This document shows, piece after piece, positions 30,269 through 59,701 of a DNA stretch of 64,000 bases (its first letter is position 1; the number at the start of each line of letters is the position of its first letter). The position numbers were made by a program, and so were the translations under genes. The notes beneath the pieces are model-generated. The model made no database searches and was not told the origin of the DNA. It saw only the letters and a list, made by a program, of their open reading frames with translations. The DNA lies in assembly GCA_963765835.1 (NCBI GenBank), contig CAVXYF010000016.1, positions 8,050 to 72,049 on the forward strand, written 5' to 3'. The DNA is from an uncultured Acidobacteriota bacterium. Lineage in GTDB: Bacteria > Acidobacteriota > Thermoanaerobaculia > UBA5066 > Gp7-AA6.

Positions 30269-32752
30269 ATGCCTTACAATGTTGTCAGCCTCGGCGGGGA
30301 AACCCGCATCCACACGTCTACGGGCGGAGTGCAGGCCGCACCCCAGTTCATCAGGCTGCCGGACGGGCGGTTCATCCTGCAATGGGTCGGCAACGGAACC
30401 GTTCACGGACAGGAGGATACAAACGGCTATTTTCAGCAGCTTTTCGACGCCAACGGGGTGAAGATCGGCAGCGAGATTCGCGTCAACGCCATGACGGACG
30501 GCGAGGTCAAACCGGATTTCGTTTCGGTCGCCCTCCCTGGCGTCGGATGGGGCTCCATCTGGAAGTCAGTCTCGGACGATCCTGCTGTCGGCGGCAACGC
30601 CTATTTCCGCACCTTTGACATGAACGGTACTCCCGGGCAGCAGCTCAGGATCAACGAGACAGAGAACGGCATATCGGAAGACTGGCGGAACGTGTTCCTG
30701 CGCAACGCCAATTCGATCGTCCTCTGGAACGGAAAAGGCACTCAGGAAGATCAGACGGACGACGCAGGCATCTTCTTCCGCCTCATGGACGAGGATGGCG
30801 ACTTCATCGGAGGGGAGACGCGCGTGAACGTTGCCGTGGAGGGGCGTGAAGAAACGCTGACCGGCGTCACGGCTCTCTCGAACGGCGGATTTGTCGTCAC
30901 CTATCGTGCCGGATCCGAGGCGTTTCAACAGGCCTTCGACCGCAATGGTGCGAAGGTCGGGGAAGAATTCACCCTCATCTCCAACGCGAGCATCACGCCA
31001 TCCGCCCGCAGCCTGGCGGACGGCAAATGGGCGACCTTCTGGAATCTTCCCGTCACCGCCCAAATCAGGGACATCTACTATCAGGTCTTCAACGCCGATG
31101 GCACAGCCGACGGCGAGGCAAAAACCGTCAATACAACCGTCGACGGAGATCAGATCAGAGCAGCCACCCTGACGATGGAGAGCGGCGGCCCGCTGATATT
31201 CTGGCAGGGGAATGGCACGCAGGAGGGCCAGGAGGACGATCATGGGCTCTTCTACCAGCGCTTCGATGCCCATGGGAGGAAGATCGGCTCCGAAACGCGT
31301 CTCAACACGACCGTCGACGGGGAACAGTCCAACCTCCGGATCTTCACCAGCTACCAGTTCAATGAGAGCACCAGCCGATACGTCGTCAAGCACTACGTCA
31401 CAGCTTGGACAATCGGTGACCCCGAGGCGCAGGATCCCGATGATCTATTCGTCCAGGTGCTCGATCCGTCCGGGGGCAAGATCGGCCCTGAAATCCGCTT
31501 CCAGGCAGTCGGCGACTTTCTCGATACGAACTTTGCGTATCTCCCTACCACCGGGCGTTCCGTTCTCACCTGGTCGGGCAAGAGTACGCGACAGGGACAC
31601 GAGGACGATGCCGGCGTCTTCATGCAGCTCTTCGACGTCAACGGCACGAGGATCGGCGCGGAGGTGCGCGTCAACAGCAGCACGGAAGGGGTCCAGAGCG
31701 GCGCCATGATCCGCGTATTGCCGAACGGCAGCTTCGTGGTGGCCTGGAACGGATCCGACGGCAGCGAAACCGGCCTCTTCATGCAGGTCTTCGATGCCAA
31801 CGGCCAACGCGTCGGCGGCGAGATCCTGGTCAACACCTCGAAGACCGGCGCTCAGATGGGCACGTTCCTGGAATTCACGGCGGATGGCACGCTTGGTCGG
31901 CTGGGAGGGTGTCGGCGATCAGCCTGACCAGCAAGACGGGACGGCGGCATGTTCTTCCAGCGCTTCAAGATCAATTCGGCGCCGGAGAGCATCGCCGTCA
32001 GCGGATCGATCCAGGAAACGGCAGCCGCGGGCACAACGGCGGGCACACTCTCGACCGTCGATCTCGACCAGTCCGACAGACACACCTTCACCCTCGTCGA
32101 CGCGGGCAATGCGCCGACGACGAATCCGCTTTTCGAGATCTCGGGCAGCACGATCAAGCTCAAGTCGGGCGCCAAGCTCAATTACGAGGCGGCGACATCC
32201 CACAATCTGCGCGTCAAGGTCACGGACGCCTTCGGCGGCAGCTATGTCCAGGACGTGGCGGTGAGCGTCACCAACGTGCGCGAAAAAACGCCGCTGCGGA
32301 AGAACGGCACCGCGGGCGCCGACATCCTGTTCGGCGAACTCGGCAACGACACGCTGTCGGGTGCGGGCGGCAACGACCGCCTGCATGGCGATCTCGGGCG
32401 CGACCGGATCTCCACCGGCAGCGGCAAGGATGTGGTGGTCTTCGACCAGCGCCCGTCGAGCAGCAACCGCGACACGATCACCGATTTCGACCCGAAGAAG
32501 GACTCGCTCTATCTCGACAATGCCTTCTTCACCAAGCTGGGAAAGAAGGGCTCGCTCGAGAAGCCGGCCAAGCTGTCCAAGACCTATCTCGAGTTCGACG
32601 CACCGAACGACGCCAACGATTACCTGATCTACAACCGCAAGACCGGCGTGCTGTCCTACGACGCCGATGGCAACAAGGCAGGAAAAGCTGTCGAGATCGC
32701 GGTCTTCACCAACAAGCCCAAGCTCACCTACGCCGACTTCTTCGTGATCTGA
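30269..32752 (+). CDS. Paralogous large secreted repeat/cadherin-like/RTX T1SS-substrate protein; about 2 frameshifts near 31890-31940
   Basis: ATG at 30269 (MPYNVVSLGGETRIHTSTGG...). It has the same ~48-aa repeat module as 27120 (...[42 protein letters not shown]...), a cadherin-like region, and the RTX run [37 protein letters not shown]. The C-terminus is ...AVFTNKPKLTYADFFVI*. Confidence 0.75.
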
Positions 32753-46733: not shown

Positions 46734-47693
46734 TCATCGGACCGGGCACAGGACCGCTATTCCGAGTCCCGCTTCGCTTTCCGGCCCGTGGACGTCAAGC
46801 GTCGATCGGCGAAGTGGCGACGCCGACCTGCGAGCGATCGACAGCTCGTGGGACAGCGCGATCTGGCGCCAGTGCACCGGTGCGTCCTCGCGATAGCGCT
46901 TGAACTCGGCGGGCAGCGCTAGCGCGCTGAGGCGCTCCAGCACCTGCGCGCCGCCCGCGATCTGCGGGTTGGACGGGTCGAAGCCCTCCCGCCGCTCCCG
47001 CTGCGTCACGAGGCCGCGGGCGCGCTCGAAGGCGGTGTCGAGGCGGCGCTCGCCGCGCAGGGCCTTGTTGAAGAAGGCGTCGCCGAAATAGGTCCAGGTC
47101 GCGCCGTCGCGGCAGCCGAAGGACGGCTTGTCGGCCGCCGCCGCCGTGATGACGAGGGTGCGCTCGTCGGCGAGCGCCCTGGCGAAGATGCCGGAATAGC
47201 AGGCCGAGACGATCACGACCCGGTGCTGCGCCCGGGTCTCGTCGAGGAGCGTCCGCGACGTCGCCGCGGCGTCACGAGGCGCTGCGTCGCGTCCGGCCAC
47301 GAGCCCGATGCCCTCGGGCGCCCCGTGCGAGGTGAGGACGAGCACCACGACGTCCTCCGCCGGATCGAGAACCTGTCCCGCGGCCTGCGGCGGCGGCCAG
47401 CAGGGAGGCGGGCGTCGCGCCGGACGCGGCGCTTGGTGTTGAAGCGGACGATGGTGCGTCCTTTCGCGTCGAGCTGCGCCTCGAGAACCCGCGCCGCGCC
47501 CTTGGCCTCGCTCTCGAACACGCTCTGCGGTCCCCAGAGCCCGAAGGACAGGATGTAGACATCGACTACCGCCCGGACGCTGCGGCGCCAGCCGGACCGG
47601 GTCGGCCCGGCGTGCCGCCTGCGCATGGGCGTCGTGAAGCGGGCTCAAGGCGAGCGAGAGCCCAACCAGACAGAAAGCGATCAACCGGCGCAT
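46734..47693 (-). CDS. Peptidase C13 (legumain/caspase-like) family protein; about 3 frameshifts, 3' end uncertain
   Basis: Signal peptide MRRLIAFCLVGLSLALSPL.... Then ...VVLVLTSHGAPEGIGLVAG... (His) and ...HRVVIVSACYSGIFA... (catalytic Cys). The N-terminal part ...VDVYILSFGLWGPQSVFESEAKGAARVLEAQLDAKGRTIVRFNTK... lies in other frames. Confidence 0.6.
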   Translation of the reverse strand: MRRLIAFCLVGLSLALSPLHDAHAQAARRADPVRLAPQRPGGSRCLHPVLRALGTAERVRERGQGRGAGSRGAARRERTHHRPLQHQAPRPARRPPPCWPPPQAAGQVLDPAEDVVVLVLTSHGAPEGIGLVAGRDAAPRDAAATSRTLLDETRAQHRVVIVSACYSGIFARALADERTLVITAAAADKPSFGCRDGATWTYFGDAFFNKALRGERRLDTAFERARGLVTQRERREGFDPSNPQIAGGAQVLERLSALALPAEFKRYREDAPVHWRQIALSHELSIARRSASPLRRSTLDVHGPESEAGLGIAVLCPVR

Positions 47694-47800
47694 GAATACC
47701 CCACCCTCGACTTACTTTACGCGCAGCCGGTGCCGAAAGCCAAGGAACGGCCCAGTGAACGACATCTGCCGAACCGAATCCCCTCTTCCGGGTTTCCCTG

Positions 47801-49525
47801 TCAGAGATTTCTCGACAGAGGGCTTACATGGACATCGCGCTCGACAAGGTTTTCGTCGGCGGCGGCGGAGAGCGGCGCGACGTTCTTCAGCCCGAACGCG
47901 TCGCGTGAACCGGTCCGGTAGCGGTACTTGCGGGCGTCCGGCGGTGGGGGGAGCGCGCCTCGCGCGAGCTCCTTCATTTGCGTCTCGATCCAGGGCTCCG
48001 CATGGAGGCCCCAGCCGGTGAACGCTCCTTCGTACTGCTGCGACTCGTACTCCTCCGGGGTCGCGAAGTAGGAGAGGTACTCGTTCGCGAGGCCGACCGT
48101 CACGACGTTCTCCGGCACGGAGGCCGCGCCGGCGGCGACCGCCGCGGCAACGCGCCGCCCCGCGACCACGGTGAACTCGCCCGGCAAGGTGGCAAGGAGG
48201 ATCCGGCCGATCCGGTGGACTGCGACCGGGACGCGGTCCGGGATCCGGAGGAGCGCCACGATCGCTTTCGTCAGCGGGAACGGAACGCCGTCGAGGTCGA
48301 GCGCTCCGAGCTTGCTTCCGTGATCCTCGCTCGGGAATAGCGTCTTCGTCCCTTCTCGCCAGAGCCCGGCGAGCGGGGTGCGGCCGTCCTCCGCGCCGCC
48401 GAGGACGGGCGCGCCGGGCATGGCGGACTCCGCCGTGCACCGCCGTTTCCCCTGAGCGTCGTGAAAACACTGCTTCTTGATGGGAACGATCGCCAGGGCA
48501 GAGGAGACGTCGCCGTCGACCCGGTCTCGATGAGAGGTCGCTGCGGCGATCGCGTCGGCGAGCCGTCCTCCCAGGCCGATCGCGTCCCGGCGGTCCTGGA
48601 AGAGCCACGCGGGTGAGACGTCGCCCTCCGGACCCGCGAAGACGGCGACGACGGGCGTCACGTCGCCGGAAGCGAGCTGTCGTTCGGCCGTCCGGGCCGC
48701 TACCCCGAAAAAGTCGGCGCTGTAGACCTCGAGCTCGTGCCCCATCGCGGTCGCGTGCGCGCCCGCGAACGCAGCGACAGCGATGACGCGATCGTTATCG
48801 GCGCTGCGCAGGGTGAGAACGCGCACCACCGGATCGACCGCGCGGCCGCACATCTCGTCCGGGTACTCGGGAGTCGGTGTGACGAGAGGGCAGTCGGCGT
48901 TCGCTGCGAGGATCTCCCCGCTCTCGTGATCGAGACGGAAGGCAACGAGGCTGCGGTTGCGCCACAAGCCGGGCGCGCGGGCCGTCGAGAAGTCGAGGGT
49001 CGCGGGCCGTTTCCCCGCCGCGGCCTTTTCAATCGCGTCGGCGATCCGTTTGGCGAGGAACCGGAACAGATGCGGATCGAAGCCGGGCACCTTGGACGCG
49101 AAGACGTTGTACGCGGGGCTCGTCGAGTAGTTCGCGGGACTCTGATGCGTGTGGGTCGCGGCGAGCAGGAGCTGACCTCGAGCCAGGTGCCGCGTCGCCG
49201 CTCTCTCGGAGAGGAGCTGCGCGACTCGGTCACCCAGCCCGGCCGGCATCGACCAGAGATCGGTGGCCACCAGGACCACCGCCTTTCCGTTGCGATCCTC
49301 GACGTAGACGGCTCGGGCATAGAGCCGCGTCCAGACGCCCCGGCCGATCTGGCCAACGGACCCGTGACCGCCCATCGAGAACCCGGGAATCGGCGTGATG
49401 TCGACGCTCGCGGCGCCGCCCTGGAACGACCCGCTCGGCGGCAGGAGGGCAGGCGCGGTCAACCGACCCGAGATCGAGGAGCAACCCAACTGAGCGAGGG
49501 CCAGTAACCATGCTCCCGCCGTCAC
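47801..49525 (-). CDS. Neutral/alkaline ceramidase family protein (secreted); intact 574 aa
   Basis: GTG start MTAGAWLLALAQLGCSS... signal peptide. ...VLVATDLWSMPAGL...LLLAATHTHQSPANYS... is the neutral-ceramidase N-terminal domain signature. No frameshift. Confidence 0.75.
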   Translation of the reverse strand: MTAGAWLLALAQLGCSSISGRLTAPALLPPSGSFQGGAASVDITPIPGFSMGGHGSVGQIGRGVWTRLYARAVYVEDRNGKAVVLVATDLWSMPAGLGDRVAQLLSERAATRHLARGQLLLAATHTHQSPANYSTSPAYNVFASKVPGFDPHLFRFLAKRIADAIEKAAAGKRPATLDFSTARAPGLWRNRSLVAFRLDHESGEILAANADCPLVTPTPEYPDEMCGRAVDPVVRVLTLRSADNDRVIAVAAFAGAHATAMGHELEVYSADFFGVAARTAERQLASGDVTPVVAVFAGPEGDVSPAWLFQDRRDAIGLGGRLADAIAAATSHRDRVDGDVSSALAIVPIKKQCFHDAQGKRRCTAESAMPGAPVLGGAEDGRTPLAGLWREGTKTLFPSEDHGSKLGALDLDGVPFPLTKAIVALLRIPDRVPVAVHRIGRILLATLPGEFTVVAGRRVAAAVAAGAASVPENVVTVGLANEYLSYFATPEEYESQQYEGAFTGWGLHAEPWIETQMKELARGALPPPPDARKYRYRTGSRDAFGLKNVAPLSAAADENLVERDVHVSPLSRNL

Positions 49526-49576
49526 ATTCGCGCGGGAAGGGCGTTTTCGAGTCCCGGCCTGGCGGATCAGATGAAT

Positions 49577-49972
49577 TTACCTCTTCAGAGCGTAGAACCC
49601 GAAGGTCCGGCCTCCCCAATAAGTCGTTCCGGCGAGCTTCTTCTTGTCCCAGCTGAAGATGCGCGCATCGAACTTCTGGGTGTTACCCGGAAAGTTGATG
49701 GAAAACGCCATGTGTTGAAGGCGATCGTCGATGCGGTCGATCTTTCCCGAATGCGTTTTCCCCTGAGAGTCGGTGTAGCGGACTGCCATGTCACACCACA
49801 CCGGGCCCCCGCAGTCGGCTTTGATGTCCGTGATCATCAACGTGCCGACGTGTCCGTCATGGTTCATCGACCATTGGCCGAACCACTCTCCCTTCTGCGC
49901 ATCCGCGAACGCGAACCCGGGAACGACGAGCAAAGCCAGCAATGCACAAGGGGCAAGTCTTCTCGCTTTCAT
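49577..49972 (-). CDS. Small secreted hypothetical protein (131 aa)
   Basis: GGAGG RBS. The signal peptide MKARRLAPCALLALLVVPGFAFA is followed by a Cys-containing mature domain. No known domain. Confidence 0.5.
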   Translation of the reverse strand: MKARRLAPCALLALLVVPGFAFADAQKGEWFGQWSMNHDGHVGTLMITDIKADCGGPVWCDMAVRYTDSQGKTHSGKIDRIDDRLQHMAFSINFPGNTQKFDARIFSWDKKKLAGTTYWGGRTFGFYALKR

Positions 49973-50000
49973 CGGCGTATTCCTCCATTCGGAAAAGTCT

Positions 50001-50519
50001 TCACTGCGTCACCAGTCCCGGAATAATTCGGGTCAGGGGTCGAAGTGCGACCTTCGACACCGTCGGATACAGCCCGTCCATGAGGCTCCAGCCGACGATG
50101 TAGGCGAGGTTTCCTCGAAACACCCAGAAGAAGTGATCGTGCTCCCACGTCCCCAGGATCACGTGCTCGGCGGCCTTCACGATGAAGCTGAAGATCGCGA
50201 AGAGCAGGAACTGCTCGATCCACGGCCGGCGGTGCGCGCCGCCATAGAGGAAACCGAGGCACAGTCCGATCCAGATGAAAGTGTGGAAGAAGTTGTTCAG
50301 CCAGGGGAGAAAGCTCATCAAACCGAGACGGTACAGTCCGTAGTTCGCGAGGAACGTGCCGACGCCCCAACCCCAGAACAGCACCCAGAACGTCCGGCGG
50401 AAGTTCAGCTCGACGTGGTCCTGCGCGTACCGCAGGATCACGAAGAGCGCGGCATAGACGAACAGCACGAGCGCGTAGTCGCCCAGGTCGTTCCCCGTAC
50501 CGAGCCACCGATCGGCCAT
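50001..50519 (-). CDS. Hypothetical polytopic membrane protein (about 172 aa)
   Basis: MADRWLGTGNDLGDYALVLFVYAALFVILRY...FWVLFWGWGVGTFLANYGLYRLGLMSF.... Its start overlaps the stop of the upstream GMC gene (ATGA), so the two are translationally coupled. Confidence 0.55.
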   Translation of the reverse strand: MADRWLGTGNDLGDYALVLFVYAALFVILRYAQDHVELNFRRTFWVLFWGWGVGTFLANYGLYRLGLMSFLPWLNNFFHTFIWIGLCLGFLYGGAHRRPWIEQFLLFAIFSFIVKAAEHVILGTWEHDHFFWVFRGNLAYIVGWSLMDGLYPTVSKVALRPLTRIIPGLVTQ

Positions 50520-52918
50520 CACTTCACCAGAGGCACGGCGTAATCGGCGAGAGCCATCACCGTCAGCTGGGGGTTCACTCCGATCGACGTGGGAAAGACG
50601 CTCGCGTCCACCACGTACAGGTTCCGATAGCCGTGAACGCGGAACTCGGGATCGACGACGCCCTTCTTCGGATCGGCGCTCATCGGGTTCCCTCCCTGCG
50701 GGTGTCCGGTGCCGAGGGTGATGTCGCTCGCGTCCTTCACCAGCTCCGGCAGGCGCCGGAGCTCGGTCGGCGTACGGAACTCGTGGTATTCGAACGTCGT
50801 CGGGATGACGCACTCCGCGCCGGCGGCGAGAAACGCGTTGCCGACGAGCATCAGTCCGTCGAAAAGCTTTTCGAGGTCCGCGCGGGTCGGCTCGTATGCG
50901 ACCTCGCGCCCGGTCAGACCACCGCGTCGCGCCCGCGCGTTGCCCTCGGTGCCGACGAGGATTCCGGCGCAGGTCATCCGATTGTAGCGATGCATGTTGC
51001 GCTCGTGCTCGTGGAACCACCCCGGCATGGTCAGCGCCTGCGCGACGGGAGGGTTGAACCACGTCTCGACGACGAAGCCGCGGTCCGGGGACAGCCGAAG
51101 GTAGTGGGAGATCTGCAACCCGTCGTACGAATTGATGACCTCTGGGAAAACCGCGGTGATCGGAGATCCCATGTTGAATGCCAGGCGATTGCCGGCGCGG
51201 TCCGCCGCGACCCCGGAGTTCTTGAGCAGAAGGCTCGAGGAAACGGCGCCCGCGCTGACGACGAACGTGTTGCCGCGTACGTCGAGCCGGCGGCCGCTGC
51301 GGAATCGGCAAGTCAGACTCGTGACCTCCTCGCCTCGAGCTCGAATCCTTTCGGCTTCGCACCCTGCGATGATGCGCAGTCCCCGACGGCCGTCGACGTT
51401 GTGGTCGCGCTGGATCCACGGGAGCACGGTGTCGAGCATGGACAGCTTGCGGCCGTACGCGCAGCCGATGTTGCAGTAGCCGCATCCGAGACATCGGGAG
51501 ATGTTCGCGTCGACGACGCCGGAGTCGTTGGGCGGCAGATCGAGTCCGAGAGCGTGAACGCCTTCGACGAAGAAACGAGCGCCCGGGTTCAGATTCGAAT
51601 GGTTCTGAGGCTGGATGGTCAGGAGCTCCCGGACCCTCGCGAAGGACTCCCAGAGTCCCGGGGAGTGGATACCCGCGTCTCCCTCCGCCGGATCGTTCCA
51701 CCGGGCAAGGACGTCCTTCGGGATGTCGAAACAGACCGCGTTGTTGACGACCGTCGTGCCCCCGACGCAGCTGCCCTGAAGGACTTGGAACCGAAAGTCG
51801 CGGGTGAGCTGGAGGGCTCCCTGGTCGTACAGCCGGGCGAGCATCTCGACCTCGTCTTCGGTGAACGTCGACGGATCGTGGTGGTCGCCGCGCTCGATCA
51901 TGAGGACGTCGCGCCCCTGCGCGACGAGACCCCTCGCGAGAATGGCGGCGCCCGCGCCGGAGCCGACGATCACGACGTCGGCCGACACGACCTCCGCAGT
52001 GATCTTGGACTCCGTGTCGACTTCGAGCGGGAGCCGCACCGGAGAAGGACTCTGCGCCAATTTCGCGGGGGTCGCCGGGCGCTCCGAGAACGGCACGTAG
52101 CCGGTCACGGCGTGCGTGCGGCGGTCGCTGTAGTAACCGAGGTAGCAGAGCTGCTTGCCCATCCGGATCATGCCCTGGACGATCGTTCGCCAGACCGGCG
52201 GCACGAGGCGGCGGGTGACCTCTTCGTAAAACCGTTTGTGGAGGAACGCGTGGCGGGCGGACCGATCGAGAACCGAGAGAGGCGGGTGGAACGTGAGCAG
52301 GGGATACCACTCGAGGCCGATGAGCACGGCCTTCATGACCCAACGGCTGCGCGCCCGGAAGTCCGCCAGGTAGCGATCGACCGTGTGCGCGACGGTCGCC
52401 GGATCCGCGACGGGTCGGTCCGTGATGACGACTTCGAGCATCGAGGCGAGCGTCCGGAACTGGCCGGCCGAGAGGTATCGCAGCGCGAACCGCGCCCGCT
52501 CGGCCGCACGGTAGAACCAGATCAGAAAAACGAGGATCAGGCCATCCATCGCGACCGCTCCCCAGAGGAGAGCTCGCACCGGCAGTTGCCCGACCGTTCC
52601 CGACGTCTCTCCCCAGAGCAGCACGGCGATCGTCGCGAGCTCCGAGATGAGGTGGCCGAAGATCACGATCAGGACGAGGGCGCGGTATCGCCGTGTGTTC
52701 CCGGATGCGATGAACGCCAGCGCCGCCAGCACGCCGATCTTCACCACCGAGTTCGTGACGAACGGAAGCTGGATGAAATGGGGCTTCCAGGGACCCACGA
52801 GCGCGGGGAGCAGATACCCGAAGATCGCGAGCGTGAAGAGGAATGCGAGAACGCGCAGGAGACCGGCGAGGCGCCGCTCCTCGGGGGTCATGGCGCCGGC
52901 TTCCGAGCTCATCCGCAA
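50519..52918 (-). CDS. GMC family FAD-dependent oxidoreductase with N-terminal multi-TM membrane domain (799 aa, intact)
   Basis: The N-terminal about 140 aa has about 4 hydrophobic helices. The FAD motif is ...DVVIVGSGAGAAILARGL.... The GMC C-terminal signature is ...HGYRNLYVVDASVFPTSIGVNPQLTVMALADYA.... Confidence 0.8.
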   Translation of the reverse strand: MRMSSEAGAMTPEERRLAGLLRVLAFLFTLAIFGYLLPALVGPWKPHFIQLPFVTNSVVKIGVLAALAFIASGNTRRYRALVLIVIFGHLISELATIAVLLWGETSGTVGQLPVRALLWGAVAMDGLILVFLIWFYRAAERARFALRYLSAGQFRTLASMLEVVITDRPVADPATVAHTVDRYLADFRARSRWVMKAVLIGLEWYPLLTFHPPLSVLDRSARHAFLHKRFYEEVTRRLVPPVWRTIVQGMIRMGKQLCYLGYYSDRRTHAVTGYVPFSERPATPAKLAQSPSPVRLPLEVDTESKITAEVVSADVVIVGSGAGAAILARGLVAQGRDVLMIERGDHHDPSTFTEDEVEMLARLYDQGALQLTRDFRFQVLQGSCVGGTTVVNNAVCFDIPKDVLARWNDPAEGDAGIHSPGLWESFARVRELLTIQPQNHSNLNPGARFFVEGVHALGLDLPPNDSGVVDANISRCLGCGYCNIGCAYGRKLSMLDTVLPWIQRDHNVDGRRGLRIIAGCEAERIRARGEEVTSLTCRFRSGRRLDVRGNTFVVSAGAVSSSLLLKNSGVAADRAGNRLAFNMGSPITAVFPEVINSYDGLQISHYLRLSPDRGFVVETWFNPPVAQALTMPGWFHEHERNMHRYNRMTCAGILVGTEGNARARRGGLTGREVAYEPTRADLEKLFDGLMLVGNAFLAAGAECVIPTTFEYHEFRTPTELRRLPELVKDASDITLGTGHPQGGNPMSADPKKGVVDPEFRVHGYRNLYVVDASVFPTSIGVNPQLTVMALADYAVPLVK

Positions 52919-52943
52919 TCCGGTGCCGTCGCAGAGGACAGAG

Positions 52944-55061
52944 TCAGATCCGGACGTCTTCCAGGGACTCGATCCGTTTCTTTCTCGCCTCCTCTGGCAG
53001 GCCTAGCATCGCATCTGCGTTGAGAACGCTTTGGTCGAAGGTGACACCGGTGTCCGTGGATAGATCCTCCAGAGTGACCTGATCAACGTCGAATTTGCCG
53101 GCAGAAAAGTCTTCGATTCCGAATTCGTCGATCGCGTCGCTCTGATCGAGAACGAACGCATACGCACGAAGCGTCGGATTCGAGTCGGCGTCCTGCGCGA
53201 CGAGCAGCACCTTCCAGAAGCGGCGCGGGATCTTGACCGGTCCTGCACCGAAGTCATGGTCTATGTCGGCCTGGTCATCGAGGACCGGCCCGGCATAGAG
53301 CGACATCTTTGGCCCCACGTTCTTTACCTGAGACTGAATGTGATTCTCGAGCTCGCCCCAGAGCCCCCGAAAGCCGAACGCTGCCCGGTTGAATTGCTCG
53401 TGCTGCGGCGTGCAGTTGGTCCAGTGGAAGCTGTCGGAATTCGCGAATACTTCATCCTTTGCGGTGTCGCCCCACGCCGTGTCCTCGCGGCGGACGATGT
53501 GTCCCCGGTCGAACTTCGCGGCGGGCTCGTACAGCTCGGGGTCCTGAATCTGATCCTCTGCCGGAATCCGAGGATCGGGAACCCACGTGTCCGTCCCGAA
53601 TTGCTCTCGCTTCTTACGTCTCTTCGACTTCGTGTAATCCACATTGACCGCGGACCACATCATGAGACGCCGCTTCTTGTTCATCACGAGCGAATAGTGG
53701 TGATAGGCGAGGACGAGCATCTTCCCGGCTTTCTTGAGGATCTCGGAGGCACGGCCGGGTGAGACTCCCGGAAGAGGGACGTCGATCCCGAGGAATGCCG
53801 CGTCGTATCCGGAGCGATTCGGATAATCCGGGTCGAAACGGAGCTTCTTCTCGACGGCCAGCGCATCCACCGGCGGCGCGGGGAGAGCGGGCTGAGAACC
53901 GACCGCGCGCTCGACGCCGAAGTAGAAATTGGCGGTTCCGTTCACGGTGATCGCAACGCCGCGGCCGGGTTTCGGTGCCGGCGCGACCACATCTCCTCCC
54001 TCGACCTGACTCTGAACAGCCGGCAGGTTCTCGAAGTCGTCGCCGAACGTTCGAAGGAGCTTGTCGAGAGCGGCGCGCTGCGTTGGCGAGACGCTCGCCG
54101 TCCTCAAGTAATCACAGATCCGGCTGATCCGTACCCCCTCGTTCGCCACCCAATGAATATCGTCGTCCGGCATGCCGCGTTGCCAGGGCGTGCCCGCTAT
54201 CGTCATGATCGTTCCGTTCTGCATCTCGGGAACGCCGCTGTGATGCAGCGCGACCACCTCCCAGTCCTTGTTGAACGCCGGCGAGCCGGAAGAACCGGGG
54301 AGAGTGTCCGTCGTGTATTGGAGATAGGAGTCTCGATCGGTCGGCGCGAGAAGCAACTCGTTGTCGCGAACGCCGTATTTCTTGGGTCCTCCCTCGGGAT
54401 ACTGAATGATGCTGATCGATTGACCGACGAGGACTTTTCCGGTCGTCGGACTGAGTGTCAGGGTCTTGAACTGACTGACATCCGCGACGCCGTCGGTCGC
54501 GAAAGGTTGAATCCCGACGATGGCGAAGTCGAGATCTTTCGATGCATGGAAGAGAACCGTCGGATCGAGGCGGAAGATCGTGCCTGCCGACAAGCTGCCG
54601 TTCCGCAGCTCGTAACCGAACTGGATGCCGCATCCTCGACACTCGCTCGCTTTGGCGAAAACGTGGTGGTTGGTCAACATGACGTCGCCCGCTATGAGAA
54701 ACCCGGTCGCGAAGCCGTCGCGAACGGTGCCGTCATCGCCGAGCTCGACAATCCGTCCGACCGGCAGACCCGCCCGGCTGGCGGCTTCGTTCGGAGGCGT
54801 CTCATCGAGATCCAGCGTCGGCCCGATTCTGCGCTCCAGGGGACGGAGGTCACCGATGCCGGCCTTCGCGTAGACGGTCTTCTTCGCCGCCTCGCGAGCG
54901 CGGTACGCACGGACGCGCTCGGGCGTGTCCGCGTGCTCCGGCCCGCCGCGCTTCAGCCGCCGGACGGCTTCGGCGCGACGCGGAAGCGCCGCCTGCCAGC
55001 GTTGTCCGGCTTCTTGTGCCTGCTCGATCTGCCTCCGCCTGACTTCCTCAGCGTGACCCAT
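52944..55061 (-). CDS. Fusion protein: trypsin-like serine peptidase (Trypsin_2/S1) + DNA/RNA non-specific endonuclease (Endonuclease_NS, DRGH motif); 705 aa, intact, no signal peptide
   Basis: ATG about 55061 (MGHAEEVRRRQIEQAQ..., a charged helical N-terminus with no hydrophobic stretch). Protease region: ...DGFATGFLIAGDVMLTNHHVF... (His), ...DLDFAIV... (Asp), ...TDTLPGSSGSPAF... (GSSGSP Ser). Nuclease region: ...LAYHHYSLVMNKKRRLMMWSAVNVDY...FDRGHIVRRED...FHWTNCTPQHEQFNR... (DRGH/N catalytic motif of NucA/EndoG-type nucleases). Confidence 0.7.
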   Translation of the reverse strand: MGHAEEVRRRQIEQAQEAGQRWQAALPRRAEAVRRLKRGGPEHADTPERVRAYRAREAAKKTVYAKAGIGDLRPLERRIGPTLDLDETPPNEAASRAGLPVGRIVELGDDGTVRDGFATGFLIAGDVMLTNHHVFAKASECRGCGIQFGYELRNGSLSAGTIFRLDPTVLFHASKDLDFAIVGIQPFATDGVADVSQFKTLTLSPTTGKVLVGQSISIIQYPEGGPKKYGVRDNELLLAPTDRDSYLQYTTDTLPGSSGSPAFNKDWEVVALHHSGVPEMQNGTIMTIAGTPWQRGMPDDDIHWVANEGVRISRICDYLRTASVSPTQRAALDKLLRTFGDDFENLPAVQSQVEGGDVVAPAPKPGRGVAITVNGTANFYFGVERAVGSQPALPAPPVDALAVEKKLRFDPDYPNRSGYDAAFLGIDVPLPGVSPGRASEILKKAGKMLVLAYHHYSLVMNKKRRLMMWSAVNVDYTKSKRRKKREQFGTDTWVPDPRIPAEDQIQDPELYEPAAKFDRGHIVRREDTAWGDTAKDEVFANSDSFHWTNCTPQHEQFNRAAFGFRGLWGELENHIQSQVKNVGPKMSLYAGPVLDDQADIDHDFGAGPVKIPRRFWKVLLVAQDADSNPTLRAYAFVLDQSDAIDEFGIEDFSAGKFDVDQVTLEDLSTDTGVTFDQSVLNADAMLGLPEEARKKRIESLEDVRI

Positions 55062-55073
55062 GGCCCCCGCTCT

Positions 55074-56180
55074 CTACTTGACGACCCGGATCGGGATGTA
55101 GGTCGCGTTGTTTCCCTCAACCACCTCACGGAGCGCACCCCTTTCGTCGATGACGACGCCGAGCCAGTAGCTCGTGTCCGTAGAGAGATCTCTCGGAATG
55201 GTGAGGGTGACTCTCGTCGTGTACACGTCGCCGCGGCTCAGCGTGAACGTGGCCCCGCCGATTCGGCGATCCAGCGTCGTGATGAGATCGTTCGTGGAAA
55301 TGTAGTACCCCGCCGGCACCCCGCTCTGGGTCGTCTTCCCCATGTTTTCGTAGGTGAACTCCGCCTGTACTCTCACGCCCGGGGTTACCCTGTAGCCGGT
55401 CTCTCCGTTCACAGTGAAGGTCGGCAGGTCTCCGCCGGCTGCGGTGTAGAGCTTGGTCTTGGTGTGGTCGGAGTACTCGCCCGAGGCGCCGGAGTACTTC
55501 CAGTGCACGACGCCCAGGTCTTCCCACGCGTCGGGTCGAGCGCCGTATAAGAAGACCGCGCCGTCCGCGGCATCCTCGCCCATGTAGGCCCGTGCCGTGG
55601 AACCGTTGACGTGGATGTGCTCGAAGTCCGTGCCCATTACGTTGTATTCGGTGTTGACATGATTCAGCTTCAGGCCATGTCCGAACTCATGGGAGGCAGT
55701 GGTCTGAAGAGGACGAAGACTGCCGGTGTACCGGATGAGCGACGACTTGACAGTGTCAGCTGTCCACTGCCAGGGACTCATCGAGTAGTCGAAGATCACG
55801 TCCACCTCGTTCATGTGAACGTGGTCTCCGAAGAACCAGTAGCATGTCCAGTAGGAGTAGGCGATCGCCGGAGCGCCGTCCAGAATCGATCCGGTATCGC
55901 CCCAGGCTTCGCTTTGGCCGTTGTCCCGGCCGACACCGCCGCTGTCGGTCCCGAGTGAATACCGGAACTTGCTCGGGTTCAGATTGAATCGGTTGATCCC
56001 GTCCTGGAGGCCGTTGCGCCAGTAGCCGGTGGGGAAGCTGACCCCGCTCGCACCCAAGGTTTTGGAGTTGGAGCTCCACTTCAGTTTCTCGCCGAGGCAC
56101 GTACTGTAGCTGTAGGCGATAGCGGGGCTCACCTGAACGAGAGCGGCTGCCGCGGCGATCAGGACGAACTTCTTTCGCAT
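55074..56180 (-). CDS. Secreted metzincin-type zinc metalloprotease (HEFGHGLKLNH + Met-turn), 368 aa intact
   Basis: GGAGG RBS and signal peptide MRKKFVLIAAAAALVQVSPAIA. HExxHxxGxxH is at ...TASHEFGHGLKLNHVNTEYNVMG.... A C-terminal beta-rich domain follows. It sits 12 nt upstream of the protease-nuclease gene. Confidence 0.75.
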   Translation of the reverse strand: MRKKFVLIAAAAALVQVSPAIAYSYSTCLGEKLKWSSNSKTLGASGVSFPTGYWRNGLQDGINRFNLNPSKFRYSLGTDSGGVGRDNGQSEAWGDTGSILDGAPAIAYSYWTCYWFFGDHVHMNEVDVIFDYSMSPWQWTADTVKSSLIRYTGSLRPLQTTASHEFGHGLKLNHVNTEYNVMGTDFEHIHVNGSTARAYMGEDAADGAVFLYGARPDAWEDLGVVHWKYSGASGEYSDHTKTKLYTAAGGDLPTFTVNGETGYRVTPGVRVQAEFTYENMGKTTQSGVPAGYYISTNDLITTLDRRIGGATFTLSRGDVYTTRVTLTIPRDLSTDTSYWLGVVIDERGALREVVEGNNATYIPIRVVK

Positions 56181-56210: not shown

Positions 56211-57227
56211 CTATCGGGGCTTCAGTACCGGATCGAAGTCCTGCTTCTTTGCGGCCGCGAGCTCGGCAGCTTCTTCCTTGCTCCTGGGCGCTGCCTCCGC
56301 TCGAGCCGGCACCGGTCGGTGCGGAGCGCTCGCCTTCGCGGGCGCGACGATGATCGGAGCGTCGCGGGCGATGCTCCGGATCGGCGACGGGGCGCGCTTC
56401 GTGTGTCCCAGGATCGACTTCAGGACGGTCGTGAACTCCTCGACCGCCATCGGACCTTCCGGGATTGCGTCGGGTGTCGTTGCGATCGCCGACCTCTCGG
56501 CCTGCTGGACCTCGCCCAGTGAGTCCTTATCAATTGCCGCCGGAATGTCGCGCCCGAGCTCGATCTGCTTGGGCGCCTCCGCCTCGTATCGCCGGCGTAT
56601 TTCGTCGAGTGACATCTTCTGCCGCTCCATGAGCGCGCGAACCTCCGCGTTCTTGACGAGGTCATCGAACCTGGGCGCGGGGTAGCGGAACGTGAGGAAC
56701 TCCTTGGGGGGCATCCCACGGGCGATCGCGTTCGTCTTGCGGACTGCGCGCACGGGAAAGCCGTGGTGGTTGTAGACGCCGCCGCGAAGTATTCGGAATC
56801 GGCCCCATTCGCACAGGACGAGCGGGCAGACCCTTTCCCCGTTGCCGGAGACGAACAGCAAGTCTTCTTCGCCAAGCTGGAACATGGGAACTCCGCTGAC
56901 CTCCATGAACCGCCCGGCGCCGTCGGAACCGCCGATAAATCGCATCATGAACGTCTTTCCGTACGGCTGGCCTCGAAGGACGCTGCCAATCTCGTACGTG
57001 ACGATCGTGTGCGGCAGCCCGCCCCCTTCTCCGGCCCGCTTCTCCGAACGGCGATACTCGACGTTCGCAACCCGACCGATGAAGACCAGGTTGGAGCGCT
57101 CGGCGAGTGCCGCGAGGTCGCCCCCTTTGTCGCTGCCGATGTCGCTATGTCCGAACGCGCGTCCGGCTCCGGCGTACCAGGCGACCCAAACGAGCAGTGC
57201 GCAAAAAGCGAGCTTCAGGGAACGCAT
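56211..57227 (-). CDS. Secreted hypothetical protein with disordered Ala/Pro-rich C-terminal tail (338 aa, intact)
   Basis: Signal-peptide-like MRSLKLAFCALLVWVAWYAGAGRAFG. No recognisable domain. It sits 30 nt upstream of the metzincin gene. Confidence 0.5.
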   Translation of the reverse strand: MRSLKLAFCALLVWVAWYAGAGRAFGHSDIGSDKGGDLAALAERSNLVFIGRVANVEYRRSEKRAGEGGGLPHTIVTYEIGSVLRGQPYGKTFMMRFIGGSDGAGRFMEVSGVPMFQLGEEDLLFVSGNGERVCPLVLCEWGRFRILRGGVYNHHGFPVRAVRKTNAIARGMPPKEFLTFRYPAPRFDDLVKNAEVRALMERQKMSLDEIRRRYEAEAPKQIELGRDIPAAIDKDSLGEVQQAERSAIATTPDAIPEGPMAVEEFTTVLKSILGHTKRAPSPIRSIARDAPIIVAPAKASAPHRPVPARAEAAPRSKEEAAELAAAKKQDFDPVLKPR

Positions 57228-57356: not shown

Positions 57357-57440
57357 GGAATGGGACCGTGCAGACTCGGAATGGGACCGTGCAGACTCGG
57401 AATCGGACCGTGTAGACTCGGAATCGGACCGTGTAGACCG
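57357..57440. repeat. Tandem direct repeat, 4 x 21 bp (ggaatgggaccgtgcagactc x2; ggaatcggaccgtgtagactc x2)
   Basis: Read directly from the sequence. It lies in the 356-bp gap between the anti-sigma stop (57584) and the start of the downstream secreted-protein gene (57227). Confidence 0.9.
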
Positions 57441-57583: not shown

Positions 57584-58978
57584 CTAGCCGGTTTTCTCCC
57601 TCGCGGTCTGCGCCAGCAGCTCTTCGACCTGCAGTCGAAGCGTGCTCAACCTTTCGAGGTCCGGGTCGGCGCCGGAGAGCGACTCGGCGATGTCACGGAT
57701 CACCTTCGGGTCGAGCGTCCGGTCGCGGGAGATCTCTCGCTGGAGGAGATCCAGCCGATGCCGCGCGCGGTCGAGGCCGCCCTGGCGGGCCCGGCTCTCG
57801 ATTTCGAGCAAAGTCGCGATGTAGGCGTTCGCCCGCATACCGGCATCCCGGAACACCTGGGCGGCCCGCGCGGCGGAGACCGAGGCCTCGGAGAACCGGC
57901 CGGCGGCGAACAGGGTTTCCGCGAGGCCCGTCCTCAGGTAGCCCAGCCAGTACCGATGCCGTTCCTGGGAGAACCGCCGGAGCGCCCGGGCGTACTCGCG
58001 GCGCGCCTCGTCAACGCGGCCCAGGCTGGTCAGCGACGTCGCAATGCTGTTGAGACAGCCGACGTAGTTACTCCAGAGCTCGTGCCGCTCGTAGACCGGC
58101 AGGGCTTCGCGGAAGCACCGGACGGCGTCCTCCTCGCGGCCGAGGGTCGAGTACGCCAGACCGCGAGCTCCGATCGCTCGGGCGGCGAAGTCATCGAGGC
58201 CGAGCTCTTCGAACGTCGTCTGGGCGCGGCGCGCGAGAACCAGGGCAGCCGCGCCTTCGTTCGCGAATGCGCGCCGCTGCGCCTCGACGAGCTCTACGTG
58301 CGCCAGGTCCAACTCTCCGCCGCCCCCTCGGGCGAAGGCTCGATACGCGAGCACGAGGCTCGATCGGGCGCGGGAGAAGTCCCGGGTCCACATGCACGCC
58401 ATCGCAGTCAGAAGGTGCGCCTGACCGCGGATGACCGGCAGGGGCACGAACTGGTCCGCCGGTTCCCGCGGACGCCGGGCGGCGGCTTCCGAGCGAACTC
58501 TCCGCAGAACGGCTTCGGCAAAGCCCGAGGCCCGCACCGGGTCCTCCGCGATCTCTCGTCCGGCCTGCTGCAGCGCGTAGAGGAGCGCGTACCGGTCTTC
58601 TGCTTCGCGCAGGGGGAGGTCGGGCAAACCGTCGTCGCGTCGGACCGCCTCGAGAATCCGATCCCGCAGGACCATGCCTCGCTCCGACGCCGCGATGGCG
58701 GTCGACACCGGCGGAATCCCGACGCCAGTCCGGTCGGGGATCCGGAGACGCGACCGCCGGCGGAAAGGGTCGTCCGGCGGGAGATCCGTCCACCCCTCGC
58801 CGAAGGCGCCGGCCGAGGCGACCGCGCGCAGCTCCCCGTCGAGCTTCTCGAGGGTCGTCACGGTCGCGCTGCACTCAGGGCACTCGCCCAGGTGGGAGAC
58901 GACGGACGCCCGCTCGTCCTCCGCGAGGTCTTCCACGACGCACCGCAGGAGAACGAAGTCGTCGAGGTGGCGTGTCAT
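57584..58978 (-). CDS. Anti-sigma factor: N-terminal zinc-finger (zf-HC2, HxxxCxxC) + C-terminal TPR-like domain
   Basis: MTRHLDDFVLLRCVVEDLAEDERASVVSHLGECPECSATV.... The start ATG overlaps the ECF sigma stop (ATGA). The C-terminal about 300 aa is helical repeat-rich. Confidence 0.75.
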   Translation of the reverse strand: MTRHLDDFVLLRCVVEDLAEDERASVVSHLGECPECSATVTTLEKLDGELRAVASAGAFGEGWTDLPPDDPFRRRSRLRIPDRTGVGIPPVSTAIAASERGMVLRDRILEAVRRDDGLPDLPLREAEDRYALLYALQQAGREIAEDPVRASGFAEAVLRRVRSEAAARRPREPADQFVPLPVIRGQAHLLTAMACMWTRDFSRARSSLVLAYRAFARGGGGELDLAHVELVEAQRRAFANEGAAALVLARRAQTTFEELGLDDFAARAIGARGLAYSTLGREEDAVRCFREALPVYERHELWSNYVGCLNSIATSLTSLGRVDEARREYARALRRFSQERHRYWLGYLRTGLAETLFAAGRFSEASVSAARAAQVFRDAGMRANAYIATLLEIESRARQGGLDRARHRLDLLQREISRDRTLDPKVIRDIAESLSGADPDLERLSTLRLQVEELLAQTAREKTG

Positions 58979-59478
58979 GCGAAGCATTTCCGGAGCTTCT
59001 TCAGGCAGCGGCTGATCGTCTTGGCCACACTCGAGTATTGCAGGGAGACGACCCGGGCGGCCTCGCGCAAACTGTGCCCCTCGATGTAATAAGCGGCCAG
59101 GAGTCGTCGGCACGAGGCGGAAATCTCGTCCAGCGCCTCACGGAGTGCGAACTGGCGATCGACACCCTCGGGCAGGCACGGGTCGCACGCCTCCGCGTCC
59201 TCCGACCCACCCGGGAACACCTGACGGCGGAGCCGGGCGCGCTGGACGAATCGCGCGCAACGCGCCCGAAAGACCGCAAACACGAAGCCGTCCGGACTCC
59301 GGACGTAGCCGCGGTGGCGGAGAAGCTCCAACGCGGTCTCCTGCAGGAGATCCTGGGCGTCGTCCGATCCGATGCCGAATCGGGAGCGCGCGAAGGCGAA
59401 GAGCTTATTTCGACGGACTCCGTCCAGAAGGATCGCCTCGGCGATCTGCCGGGTGGGCGGCGGCGCATCTGCACCCAT
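58975..59478 (-). CDS. ECF-type RNA polymerase sigma-70 factor (about 167 aa)
   Basis: MGADAPPPTRQIAEAILLDGVRRNKLFAFARSRFGIGSDDAQDLLQETALELLRH... (region 2) and ...CRRLLAAYYIEGHSLREAARVVSLQYSSVAKTISRCLKKLRKC (region 4 HTH). Confidence 0.8.
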   Translation of the reverse strand: MGADAPPPTRQIAEAILLDGVRRNKLFAFARSRFGIGSDDAQDLLQETALELLRHRGYVRSPDGFVFAVFRARCARFVQRARLRRQVFPGGSEDAEACDPCLPEGVDRQFALREALDEISASCRRLLAAYYIEGHSLREAARVVSLQYSSVAKTISRCLKKLRKCFA

Positions 59479-59679
59479 TTTTTTTGAAAGGCCCCTGGGA
59501 GTCGGTGAGCGGAGTCTAGCGTAGGAGAGAGCGTCGGCGGGCAGCCGGAATCGAGTCGTGAATGGCCAATTCTGGTGAAGCGTGGAGCGAGGTCTCCACG
59601 CTCGACGGGCGAGCTCGACCGCAACGTGACACGCGGAGAATGCTGTCGCCGCGGGCGGTTTTCCGGGGCTTGACTCCCA

Positions 59680-59701
59680 TACCAACCAGTTGGTATGGTC
59701 C
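59680..59701. promoter_or_regulatory. Near-perfect 22-bp palindrome, likely TetR operator
   Basis: CCATACCAACcaGTTGGTATGG (10-bp arms) lies about 30 bp upstream of the TetR start, in the divergent region shared with the ECF sigma gene. Confidence 0.55.

Follow-up and report, generated by a model that had tools for sequence, protein, structure and literature searches.

A trypsin-NucA nuclease fusion in an uncultured Acidobacteriota bacterium: a probable single-gene member of the predicted NucA-trypsin conflict systems

How might a bacterium keep a nonspecific nuclease harmless inside its own cytoplasm? The question is raised by one gene in a 64,000-nucleotide stretch of DNA (referred to here as the window) from an uncultured Acidobacteriota bacterium (Thermoanaerobaculia; UBA5066; Gp7-AA6; GenBank assembly GCA_963765835.1, contig CAVXYF010000016.1, positions 8,050 to 72,049 of the forward strand). 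A complete open reading frame (ORF) at 52944..55061 on the minus strand, with an ATG start and the stop codon included, encodes a 705-amino-acid (aa) protein that joins a trypsin-like protease to a nuclease of the NucA/EndoG type; all other genes and protein features of the window given below also lie on the minus strand except where stated. An earlier note on this DNA had taken the fusion for an unrecognised architecture and hence a candidate for a new effector module, and had suggested that its nuclease might be restrained either by the protease domain or by an unseen immunity protein. The analysis described here indicates that the fusion very probably belongs to the NucA-trypsin class of conflict systems, a class predicted from earlier genome comparisons, and that it carries several candidate control elements on a single polypeptide.

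A Pfam scan of the 705-aa ORF identified Trypsin_2 (PF13365) at residues 118 to 272 (E value of 6.2e-22, 79 bits) and Endonuclease_NS (PF01223) at residues 450 to 679 (E value of 1.5e-40, 140 bits), both far above the respective Pfam cutoffs of 27.6 and 23 bits. Together with alignments and Foldseek comparisons, these matches delimit an S1 serine protease domain of the V8/Esp type at residues ~100 to 340 (54042..54764) and a ββα-Me nuclease domain of the NucA/Serratia/EndoG type at residues 405 to 705 (52947..53849). The translation includes the motifs LTNHHVF, DLDFAIV, GSSGSPAF, FDRGHIV, and TNCTPQHEQFNR. The protease triad consists of H133 (54663-54665), D178 (54528-54530), and S258 (54288-54290, inside GSSGSP), in the canonical His-Asp-Ser order and with the G-x-S-G-x-P motif of S1 proteases, and the S1 pocket contains H273-H274, the first of which aligns to the His of the "IHWGG" motif of V8 protease. 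The nuclease active site comprises DRGH at residues 518 to 521 (53499-53510), the Mg ligand N549 (53415-53417), and E572 (53346-53348); in a HMMER alignment to Anabaena NucA (2o3b/1zm8), DRGH pairs with (D/A)RGH, TN549CTPQ with TNMMPQ, and WGELE572 with WGNLE. Conservation was judged in two alignments, one with 31 and one with 114 full-length relatives, and in a set of 22 diverse members. H133, D178, and S258, as well as D518, G520, H521, N549, N558, and E572, are invariant in both alignments, and the DRGH/N549/E572 motif is present in 21 of the 22 diverse members. Judged by their residues, both enzymes are catalytically complete, as the earlier note had proposed, and they are under strong purifying selection.

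The AlphaFold (AF2) model of the fusion, with a mean predicted local distance difference test (pLDDT) score of 85, points to the same relatives. For the N-terminal half, Foldseek searches with the model returned Esp, V8, the protease domain of FAM111A, and DegS as top matches, with a probability of 1.0 against Esp/V8, and the top matches include an entry described as "N-terminus locked Esp with pro-peptide residues." The C-terminal half matched Serratia nuclease, EXOG, EndoG, and NucA. The staphylococcal glutamyl endopeptidases V8 (GluV8), Esp, and Spl are the nearest protease relatives by sequence (E value of 5e-7) as well as by fold.

No signal peptide was found in the fusion, whose N terminus is a charged helical bundle lacking a hydrophobic h-region. 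The ORF opens at the first start codon past an in-frame stop and is the longest version of its frame, which rules out an upstream start that would add a signal peptide. Likewise, none of the 22 diverse homologues carries a Sec or Tat signal, including those from Bacillus, Rhodococcus, and cyanobacteria. By all sequence criteria the fusion looks cytoplasmic, a point on which the earlier note was borne out.

The combination of a NucA-type nuclease with a trypsin-like peptidase has been catalogued before. A 2017 survey of His-Me finger proteins by Jablonska noted that Endonuclease_NS is "often coupled with… Trypsin_2" (PMC5714182), and Kaur et al. (2020) predicted fused NucA and trypsin domains to be a conflict system in which the nuclease is deployed proteolytically ("System 3 / NucA-trypsin"; PMC7159879); the name "NucA-trypsin" has also been used elsewhere (PMC8195603). 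The published set covers 45 organisms, mostly alphaproteobacteria, and features multicopy operons, transmembrane (TM) segments, EAD1 adaptors, and STAND/bDLD2 partners. Multiple peptidase or NucA copies and additional S8 or papain-like peptidases are described as frequent and are not stated to be obligatory, and an EAD1 adaptor and/or a STAND-bDLD2 partner occurs in only a subset of the published systems (PMC7159879). The fusion has the two defining components, a nuclease of the NucA/Endonuclease_NS type within the HNH superfamily, with the NucA active-site residues matched, and a trypsin-like peptidase with an invariant triad on the same polypeptide. It further resembles the published systems in lacking a signal peptide, in fitting the proposal of proteolytic release, and in having papain-like, caspase, and subtilisin companions at some of the loci of its relatives. 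It differs in being a solitary fused copy without a multicopy operon, TM segments, EAD1, or STAND/bDLD2. Neither another trypsin or NucA copy nor further peptidases in the published arrangement were found in the 64-kb window, although papain-like and S8 peptidases occur around relatives; there is no STAND NTPase among the large ORFs of the window, and paralogues lie nearby at only 1 of 87 loci. With no second copy, no STAND protein, and no partner, the fusion in the window is a solitary and self-contained version of the system.

The architecture itself would not surprise a specialist, and the earlier view of it as unrecognised does not hold: besides the two published descriptions, the copy on the symbiosis plasmid pNGR234a is the Swiss-Prot entry "uncharacterized protein y4fB," and the family is annotated as "DNA/RNA non-specific endonuclease" in hundreds of genomes. 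What is newly noted here is the single-gene format, a private leader, two conserved Glu sites, a portable β-tag, and a variant carrying Endonuclease_1; PMC7159879 makes no mention of the leader, of either Glu motif, of the paired β-element, or of the Endonuclease_1 variant.

A census of the architecture showed it to be widespread, with variable neighbors. The homologue search gave 1,614 matches, the best 120 of which are all 640 to 740 aa long and share the same two Pfam domains at 45 to 80% identity; the count of full-length homologues, at least 120, is a lower bound. A scan of one genome per species found 80 loci with a very patchy distribution over 10 or more phyla, including Binatia, several Acidobacteriota classes, Gemmatimonadota, Planctomycetota, Bacteroidota, Verrucomicrobiota, Alpha-, Beta-, and Gammaproteobacteria, Actinomycetota, Cyanobacteriota, and "Deltaproteobacteria." The carriers are for the most part soil or rhizosphere bacteria. 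Full-length copies were found on 36 plasmids of Rhizobium, Sinorhizobium, Bradyrhizobium, Bacillus cereus/thuringiensis, Paenibacillus, and Nostoc, often on large rhizobial and Bacillus megaplasmids. The phage collection searched contained no full-length homologue, and a phage origin of the fusion was rejected on this basis. The known range had been ~45 genomes, most of them alphaproteobacterial; the census now places the family in 10 or more phyla and on many plasmids.

The linkage of protease and nuclease recurs in more than one form. A query consisting of the leader and protease recovered this module joined to a nonhomologous nuclease, Endonuclease_1 (PF04231), in proteins of ~610 aa such as P0225, P0233, and P0240, an effector swap by which the protease cassette can be seen to drive two or more nuclease folds that are unrelated to each other. 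With the nuclease half as the query, genuine unfused relatives were found in which protease genes are next in line: in Deinococcus koreensis an unfused NucA gene is followed by a Peptidase_S8 gene, and in two metagenomic operons (L093, 1760-5692, and L096, 4467-8524) an unfused NucA gene is followed by Trypsin_2 and then Peptidase_S8, with gaps or overlaps of 1 to 4 bp. A like arrangement is present on a 76.8-kb JGI contig. These three-gene operons are flanked by genes encoding TIR, pYEATS-TIR, TIR-nSTAND1-WD40, or TIR together with LD_cluster2, which is the sole clear immune-type context found in the analysis. The unfused NucA/protease operons and the Endonuclease_1 swap corroborate the system of Kaur et al. 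Many further "protease-only" or "nuclease-only" matches are contig fragments or frameshifted or split fusions (P0121 plus P0260, L038, P0343, and others) and were discounted as separate relatives. One protease-only relative, which ends in the β-element described below, is the last gene of an operon (L094, 1069-7719) whose preceding genes encode an S8-like protein, an animal-haem-peroxidase-like protein, a 196-aa protein of unknown function, and a PGAP1/LCAT-like lipase; this operon may be another multieffector arrangement.

The first candidate control element of the fusion is its N-terminal leader (residues 1 to 66, 54864..55061), a basic three-helix bundle and putative prodomain modelled with a pLDDT of ~93 and with helices at residues 2 to 24, 26 to 39, and 47 to 66. 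The leader matched nothing in Pfam at an E value of ≤10, secretion-associated families included. An exhaustive HMMER search of 1.84e9 representatives with a leader profile gave 87 matches, all of them ~700-aa fusions or fragments of such fusions, and hhalign comparisons with the neighboring papain-like and caspase proteins gave probabilities below 1%. On these three results an identity of the leader as an EAD or Death-like adaptor was rejected; being restricted to the fusion clade, it is not a promiscuous adaptor of the EAD type.

Between the leader and the protease lies the flexible motif E76-R-x-I-G-x-T-x-D (residues 76 to 84, 54810..54836), a candidate processing or activation site. E76 is invariant in all 114 aligned relatives and in 22 of 22 diverse members, and the motif as a whole is conserved at 3.57 bits per column, yet the pLDDT at residues 76 to 82 is below 50. 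In the alignment with mature V8 protease, residue 117 of the fusion falls opposite residue 35, which places the motif no more than about 5 residues from the mature N terminus of V8. The V8, Esp, and Spl enzymes require precise removal of a propeptide, after which the freed N terminus contributes to the Glu-specific S1 site. The fusion is like these S1B zymogens in having an N-terminal extension that ends where the mature N terminus of V8 begins; unlike them, as secreted virulence proteases with signal peptides, it is predicted to be cytoplasmic and its leader to be a folded three-helix bundle.

The second set of elements lies between the two enzymes. The earlier note had described an uncharacterised linker of ~140 aa; a linker does exist, but most of that segment is folded. 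Since the protease fold and associated helices extend to ~355 and the nuclease fold begins at ~405, the disordered linker covers residues ~356 to 404, about 50 aa (53850..53996), with a pLDDT of 35 to 53. Within it, the 14-aa β-element at residues 368 to 381 (VAITVNGTANFYFG; 53919..53960) is conserved at 3.06 bits per column, compared with 1.4 to 1.6 in the rest of the linker, and counterparts were found in most other clades. The same element recurs at the termini of unfused proteins. In protease-only relatives it lies at or near the C terminus (57 of 114 by pattern, with the consensus W-T-[LI]-P-L-Q-[LV]-[ST]-[IV]-x-[VIL]-G), and at least seven unfused NucA proteins begin with it (M…RIPIEI..R.G). 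In the L093 and L096 operons the trypsin ends and the NucA protein begins with the element, and a related strand stands at the C terminus of the S8 protein; the L093 versions are IQVRIPIEIVVRVG at the NucA N terminus, IRVRIPIEVTIRIG at the trypsin C terminus, and VRIRIDLEICIRVE at the S8 C terminus, and those of L096 are TIQIPIEIRIKIG and INVPIQITVSIR. A pattern search found no matching β-tags on the neighbors of the protease-only genes L094 and L095. The element is unstructured in AlphaFold monomer models both of the fusion and of an unfused NucA (in the latter, pLDDT of 47 to 59 over residues 1 to 40), which is more in keeping with a tag left free to dock than with a strand integral to the fold; it is a candidate tag for coupling the protease to the nuclease.

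The linker ends in the border motif V-E404-K-K-L-R-F-D-P-D-Y (residues 403 to 413, 53823..53855), a candidate cleavage site for release of the nuclease. The motif is conserved at 3.48 bits per column, and the pLDDT climbs from below 50 to above 90 at E404. This Glu is conserved in at least 90% of the aligned relatives and in 16 of the 22 diverse fusions, most unfused NucA proteins keep a Glu at the position, and the stand-alone NucA of Deinococcus starts precisely at the border (MALRFDPDY). Given that the closest protease relatives are glutamyl endopeptidases and that H273 corresponds to the "IHWGG" His of V8, we infer that E76 and E404 are natural candidates for autoprocessing.

These observations are consistent with the following model, in which the full-length fusion would be made as an inactive, latent protease-nuclease of the cytoplasm, with the three-helix leader acting as the prodomain of a V8/Esp-type zymogen. 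A trigger such as infection or stress would switch the protease on, possibly after self-association through the β-element of the linker, and the activated protease would cleave at E76, removing the leader, and/or at E404, at the border of linker and nuclease. The freed nuclease would then degrade cellular and invading DNA and RNA indiscriminately, leading to growth arrest or death in the manner of abortive infection or programmed death. We give a conflict or suicide-effector function with proteolytic gating of the nuclease a probability of roughly 55%; the specific details of the Glu sites and the β-tag are tentative and, as drawn here, rather doubtful. Control of the nuclease by its own protease domain had been raised in the earlier note and is the same idea proposed by Kaur et al. 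(PMC7159879). A more elaborate version, which we regard as unlikely, is a one-polypeptide death switch resembling caspase and CAD, in which the leader-held, Glu-specific zymogen cuts at both E76 and E404 and the β-tag couples protease to nuclease, or protomer to protomer, by β-augmentation or by amyloid templating like that of bacterial amyloid signaling sequences (BASS). If it were true, coupling of a protease to a nuclease through a short tag would give bacterial immunity or programmed death a new way of transmitting signals, distinct from the EAD and Death-domain adaptors proposed for the NucA-trypsin system.

Several characterized systems provide points of comparison. Anabaena NucA, Serratia nuclease, and mitochondrial EndoG/EXOG share the fold and active site of the C-terminal domain (DRGH, the Mg-ligand Asn of N-x-x-P-Q, and the Glu of WGxLE), as well as the need to keep a nonspecific nuclease harmless inside the producer. 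However, these enzymes are secreted or confined to organelles and have separate inhibitors, such as NuiA and EndoGI, whereas the fusion has no export signal or recurrent partner and its nuclease bears an N-terminal tag, linker, and protease. In eukaryotic cell death, a protease step likewise licenses a nonspecific DNase, through HtrA2/Omi and EndoG or through caspase-3 acting on ICAD/CAD, and the HtrA2/Omi-EndoG pair combines a trypsin-fold serine protease with an EndoG-type nuclease as death executioners, the same domains as in the fusion. Those components are separate proteins that depend on mitochondrial release or inhibitor cleavage, and the homology is at the domain level only. The BASS motifs (Dyrka et al., bioRxiv 10.1101/2020.01.06.895854) and the Bab/Agp abortive infection system (bioRxiv 10.1101/2024.11.07.622273) resemble the β-element in placing a β-prone motif at the C terminus of one product and the N terminus of the adjacent product in an immune-type neighborhood. 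A common short motif at the termini of adjacent products was found here only in the unfused relatives L093 and L096. BASS pairs an NLR/STAND receptor with a pore-forming Bell effector, whereas the β-tag would connect a nuclease with a protease and also with a subtilisin, and the fusion in the window has a single internal copy of the element; amyloid formation by the β-element is pure conjecture.

A number of results weigh against a gated conflict effector. The EAD1, STAND, and multicopy features of the published system were not found at the fusion in the window, and the analysis points to neither a sensor domain nor a trigger. No PADLOC or NCBIfam model matches the fusion beyond the protease fold, the PADLOC-DB v2 matches being weak and limited to the protease part (RT-Protease_XI, E value of 1e-7; PDC-S45, E value of 3e-3). 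The predicted template modelling score of the AF2 model is just 0.54. The border Glu is missing in 6 of the 22 diverse, distant members, and the specificity for Glu is predicted from homology and from the properties of V8 and SGPE. Full-text searches (y4fB, "NucA-trypsin," and trypsin-like with nonspecific endonuclease and anti-phage) returned no experimental study of the family, so that in the wet-lab sense the fusion is uncharacterised, as the earlier note had it. Only ~10 of 154 nearest neighbors at other loci match any PADLOC defense model, and the closest genes are mostly ordinary metabolic ones. Finally, the Bradyrhizobium copy is syntenic in ~30 species, among pyrB-like, AidB, LysR, and GatA/GatB genes, and matches its surroundings in G+C content at third codon positions (GC3), a stability that fits an "institutionalised" function rather than a mobile defense island.

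The last two points bear on whether the protein has a conflict role at all. A housekeeping or stress enzyme for regulated turnover of nucleic acid and protein, during starvation, development, or DNA damage, would account for the stable and compositionally matched Bradyrhizobium locus, for the metabolic neighbors, and for the sparse PADLOC matches. It would fit less well with an occurrence that is extremely patchy across at least 10 phyla, with carriage on plasmids and the frequency of pseudogenised or split copies, and with papain-like, caspase, S8, and TIR/STAND genes as accessory partners, and a nonspecific nuclease joined to a protease is implausible as a routine cytoplasmic enzyme; we consider this explanation decidedly improbable.

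Plasmid carriage raises a different explanation, a self-contained module of the addiction or toxin-antitoxin type in which the protease or the leader would be an intramolecular antitoxin and the role would be to stabilize plasmids or islands rather than to counter phages. The 36 plasmid-borne copies, the two loci at which an integrase adjoins the fusion, and the solitary, partnerless gene are in keeping with such a role. So is the GC3 of the fusion, 0.76 compared with 0.81 to 0.85 in the flanking genes. Positions 52000 to 56000 have the lowest G+C content of the right half of the window (0.62 to 0.635 versus ~0.66), which together with the low GC3 is a mild hint of horizontal acquisition, but insertion scars in the form of flanking direct repeats, inverted repeats, or a tRNA gene were not found. 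A single polypeptide, however, does not provide the pair of differing stability that classical addiction requires, the Bradyrhizobium copy is a stable chromosomal gene, and the unfused versions lie beside immune-type genes, so that an addiction module seems slightly less probable still than a housekeeping enzyme. The signs of mobility, namely plasmid carriage, adjacent integrases, and patchy spread across phyla, speak for gated release of the nuclease in conflict as well, as do the unfused operons, and it remains the reading followed here.

In the window the fusion is the third gene of a tight same-strand cluster of four, with gaps of 12 to 30 nucleotides (nt). The first gene (56211-57227) encodes a 338-aa signal-peptide protein without a Pfam match, and the second (55074-56180), directly upstream of the fusion, encodes a 368-aa signal-peptide protein with a metzincin-like HEFGHGLKLNH motif and a weak CARDB match. 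The fourth encodes a membrane GMC oxidoreductase, which has an N-terminal multi-TM extension of ~300 aa. The gaps beside the fusion are ~25 nt downstream and 12 nt upstream, the latter (55062..55073; TAG agagcgggggcc ATG) containing a G-rich Shine-Dalgarno-like stretch, and no terminator was found between the fusion and its flanking genes. The short gaps, the Shine-Dalgarno-like stretch, and the missing terminators make cotranscription in this genome plausible. Downstream of the fusion (46734-52918), the GMC oxidoreductase is accompanied by genes for other products that are probably exported or located in the membrane: a signal-peptide Peptidase_C13 protein (legumain-like), a neutral/alkaline ceramidase, and a 131-aa signal-peptide protein.

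Upstream of the cluster are genes for an extracytoplasmic function (ECF)-type sigma factor (Sigma70_r2/r4_2; 58975-59685) and a 509-aa protein rich in tetratricopeptide repeats (TPR; 57584-59113), the N terminus of which resembles a zinc-finger anti-sigma factor. As called, these two ORFs share ~139 nt, which makes a later start probable for the second. A 21-bp tandem repeat (consensus GGAATCGGACCGTGCAGACTC) occupies 57357-57438, within the 356 bp that separate the TPR/anti-sigma-like gene from the start of the cluster, with 3.9 copies, 96% matches, and a trailing partial copy to ~57459; the repeat pattern has 4 matches against 0 expected, and it may be a regulator-binding array or part of an ECF-dependent promoter region.

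This arrangement would allow the fusion to be a functional part of the local cluster, expressed under the ECF sigma/anti-sigma pair and activated by the adjacent metalloprotease, as the short gaps without terminators, the upstream regulators, and the repeat in the promoter region could suggest. In all-versus-all clustering of ORFs, however, none of the neighbors in the four-gene cluster grouped with any gene around 84 other loci, including those of relatives at 80%, 67%, and 61 to 67% identity: the gene upstream of the 80%-identical relative encodes a GAF-SpoIIE phosphatase, the 67%-identical relative has a small gene of unknown function and a LysR regulator upstream, and a 61%-identical fusion has a 2,159-aa subtilisin-family (S8) protein gene 93 bp upstream. 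Metallopeptidase genes also lie near the copies of B. thuringiensis, Nostoc, and Rhodococcus, but these and the one in the window are four mutually nonhomologous proteins, their count is not above expectation, and the association was rejected. The metalloprotease of the window also has a cleavable signal peptide, which places it in a different compartment from the fusion. Activation within a local cluster is thus highly improbable. The "secreted-enzyme operon" of the earlier note stands as a plausible transcription unit; the arrangement is conserved in no relative and is incidental, a functional meaning for it is not supported, and the neighboring secreted-protein genes are bystanders.

A wider census covered the two nearest genes on each side of the fusion at ~50 phylogenetically spread loci, giving 154 proteins, 81 upstream and 73 downstream. 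No Pfam family occurred in more than 2 of the 81 upstream or 4 of the 73 downstream neighbors, so that no recurrent partner, immunity, or export gene emerged, and the called downstream genes differ at every locus examined. The lone recurring downstream family was a papain-like peptidase (4 of 73), confined to one alphaproteobacterial subclade. PAAR, Rhs, VgrG, LXG, and WXG domains were not recurrent among the censused neighbors and were not found in the leader. After the clustering at 84 loci and the Pfam and PADLOC census of the 154 neighbors, a conserved neighbor, immunity gene, or secretion partner was rejected; the unseen immunity protein entertained in the earlier note accordingly has no recurring adjacent gene to represent it.

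The census bears most directly on the possibility that the fusion leaves the cell, as a degradative enzyme or as a toxin directed at other bacteria or at a host in predation, scavenging, or competition, by a nonclassical route such as a type III secretion system (T3SS) in rhizobia, type VI or VII secretion (T6SS/T7SS), vesicles, or lysis. Its fold relatives Serratia nuclease and Anabaena NucA are secreted, as are many Endonuclease_NS proteins, and a virulence link has been speculated for nucleases coupled to Trypsin_2 (PMC5714182). The gene in the window is packed among signal-peptide genes, and the soil and rhizosphere habitat of most carriers and the location of y4fB on a symbiosis plasmid would also suit export. 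Against this stand the lack of a Sec or Tat signal in all 22 diverse homologues, the absence of the recurrent immunity gene that interbacterial nuclease toxins nearly always have, and the lack of recurrent secretion markers; no tts-box-like motif was found upstream of the fusion at any of 87 loci, and a rhizobial T3SS effector was rejected on that result. A secreted nuclease or polymorphic toxin would be expected to have an export signal or secretion marker and an immunity gene directly downstream, and neither was found. Moreover, the secreted neighbors in the window are not conserved, and the unfused relatives lie among cytoplasmic immune-type genes encoding TIR and STAND proteins. Export is improbable on this evidence, about as much so as a housekeeping role.

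Other features were observed near the relatives and elsewhere in the window. At five loci of the alphaproteobacterial subclade with the papain-like family (L017, L020, L023, L024, and L027) a gene 14 to 39 bp downstream of the fusion encodes a ~720-aa protein without a signal peptide, whose N-terminal half is papain-like (Peptidase_C1) and whose C-terminal half is an α/β-hydrolase (DUF900), and a related protein is encoded at L026. Genes combining Amidase_2 with a caspase domain (Peptidase_C14; caspase-PGRP) lie near the copies of Aquincola (L001) and Lysobacter (L028). On the plus strand of the window, two ORFs of 596 and 552 aa (27120-28910 and 30269-31927) have high GC3 and no Pfam match at an E value of ≤1e-3.

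Protease-gated effectors, including gasdermins, Craspase, and CalpL, are a current theme in bacterial immunity. The NucA-trypsin class has so far been a computational prediction only. Encoded by a single gene without partners, and with the leader, the two Glu sites, and the β-element as clear candidates for control, the fusion described here is a convenient construct for a first biochemical test, and its single-gene format together with the newly noted elements makes the 2020 prediction directly testable. The minimal fusion also makes it possible to test how bacterial death effectors are linked in evolution to the HtrA2/EndoG pair of eukaryotes.

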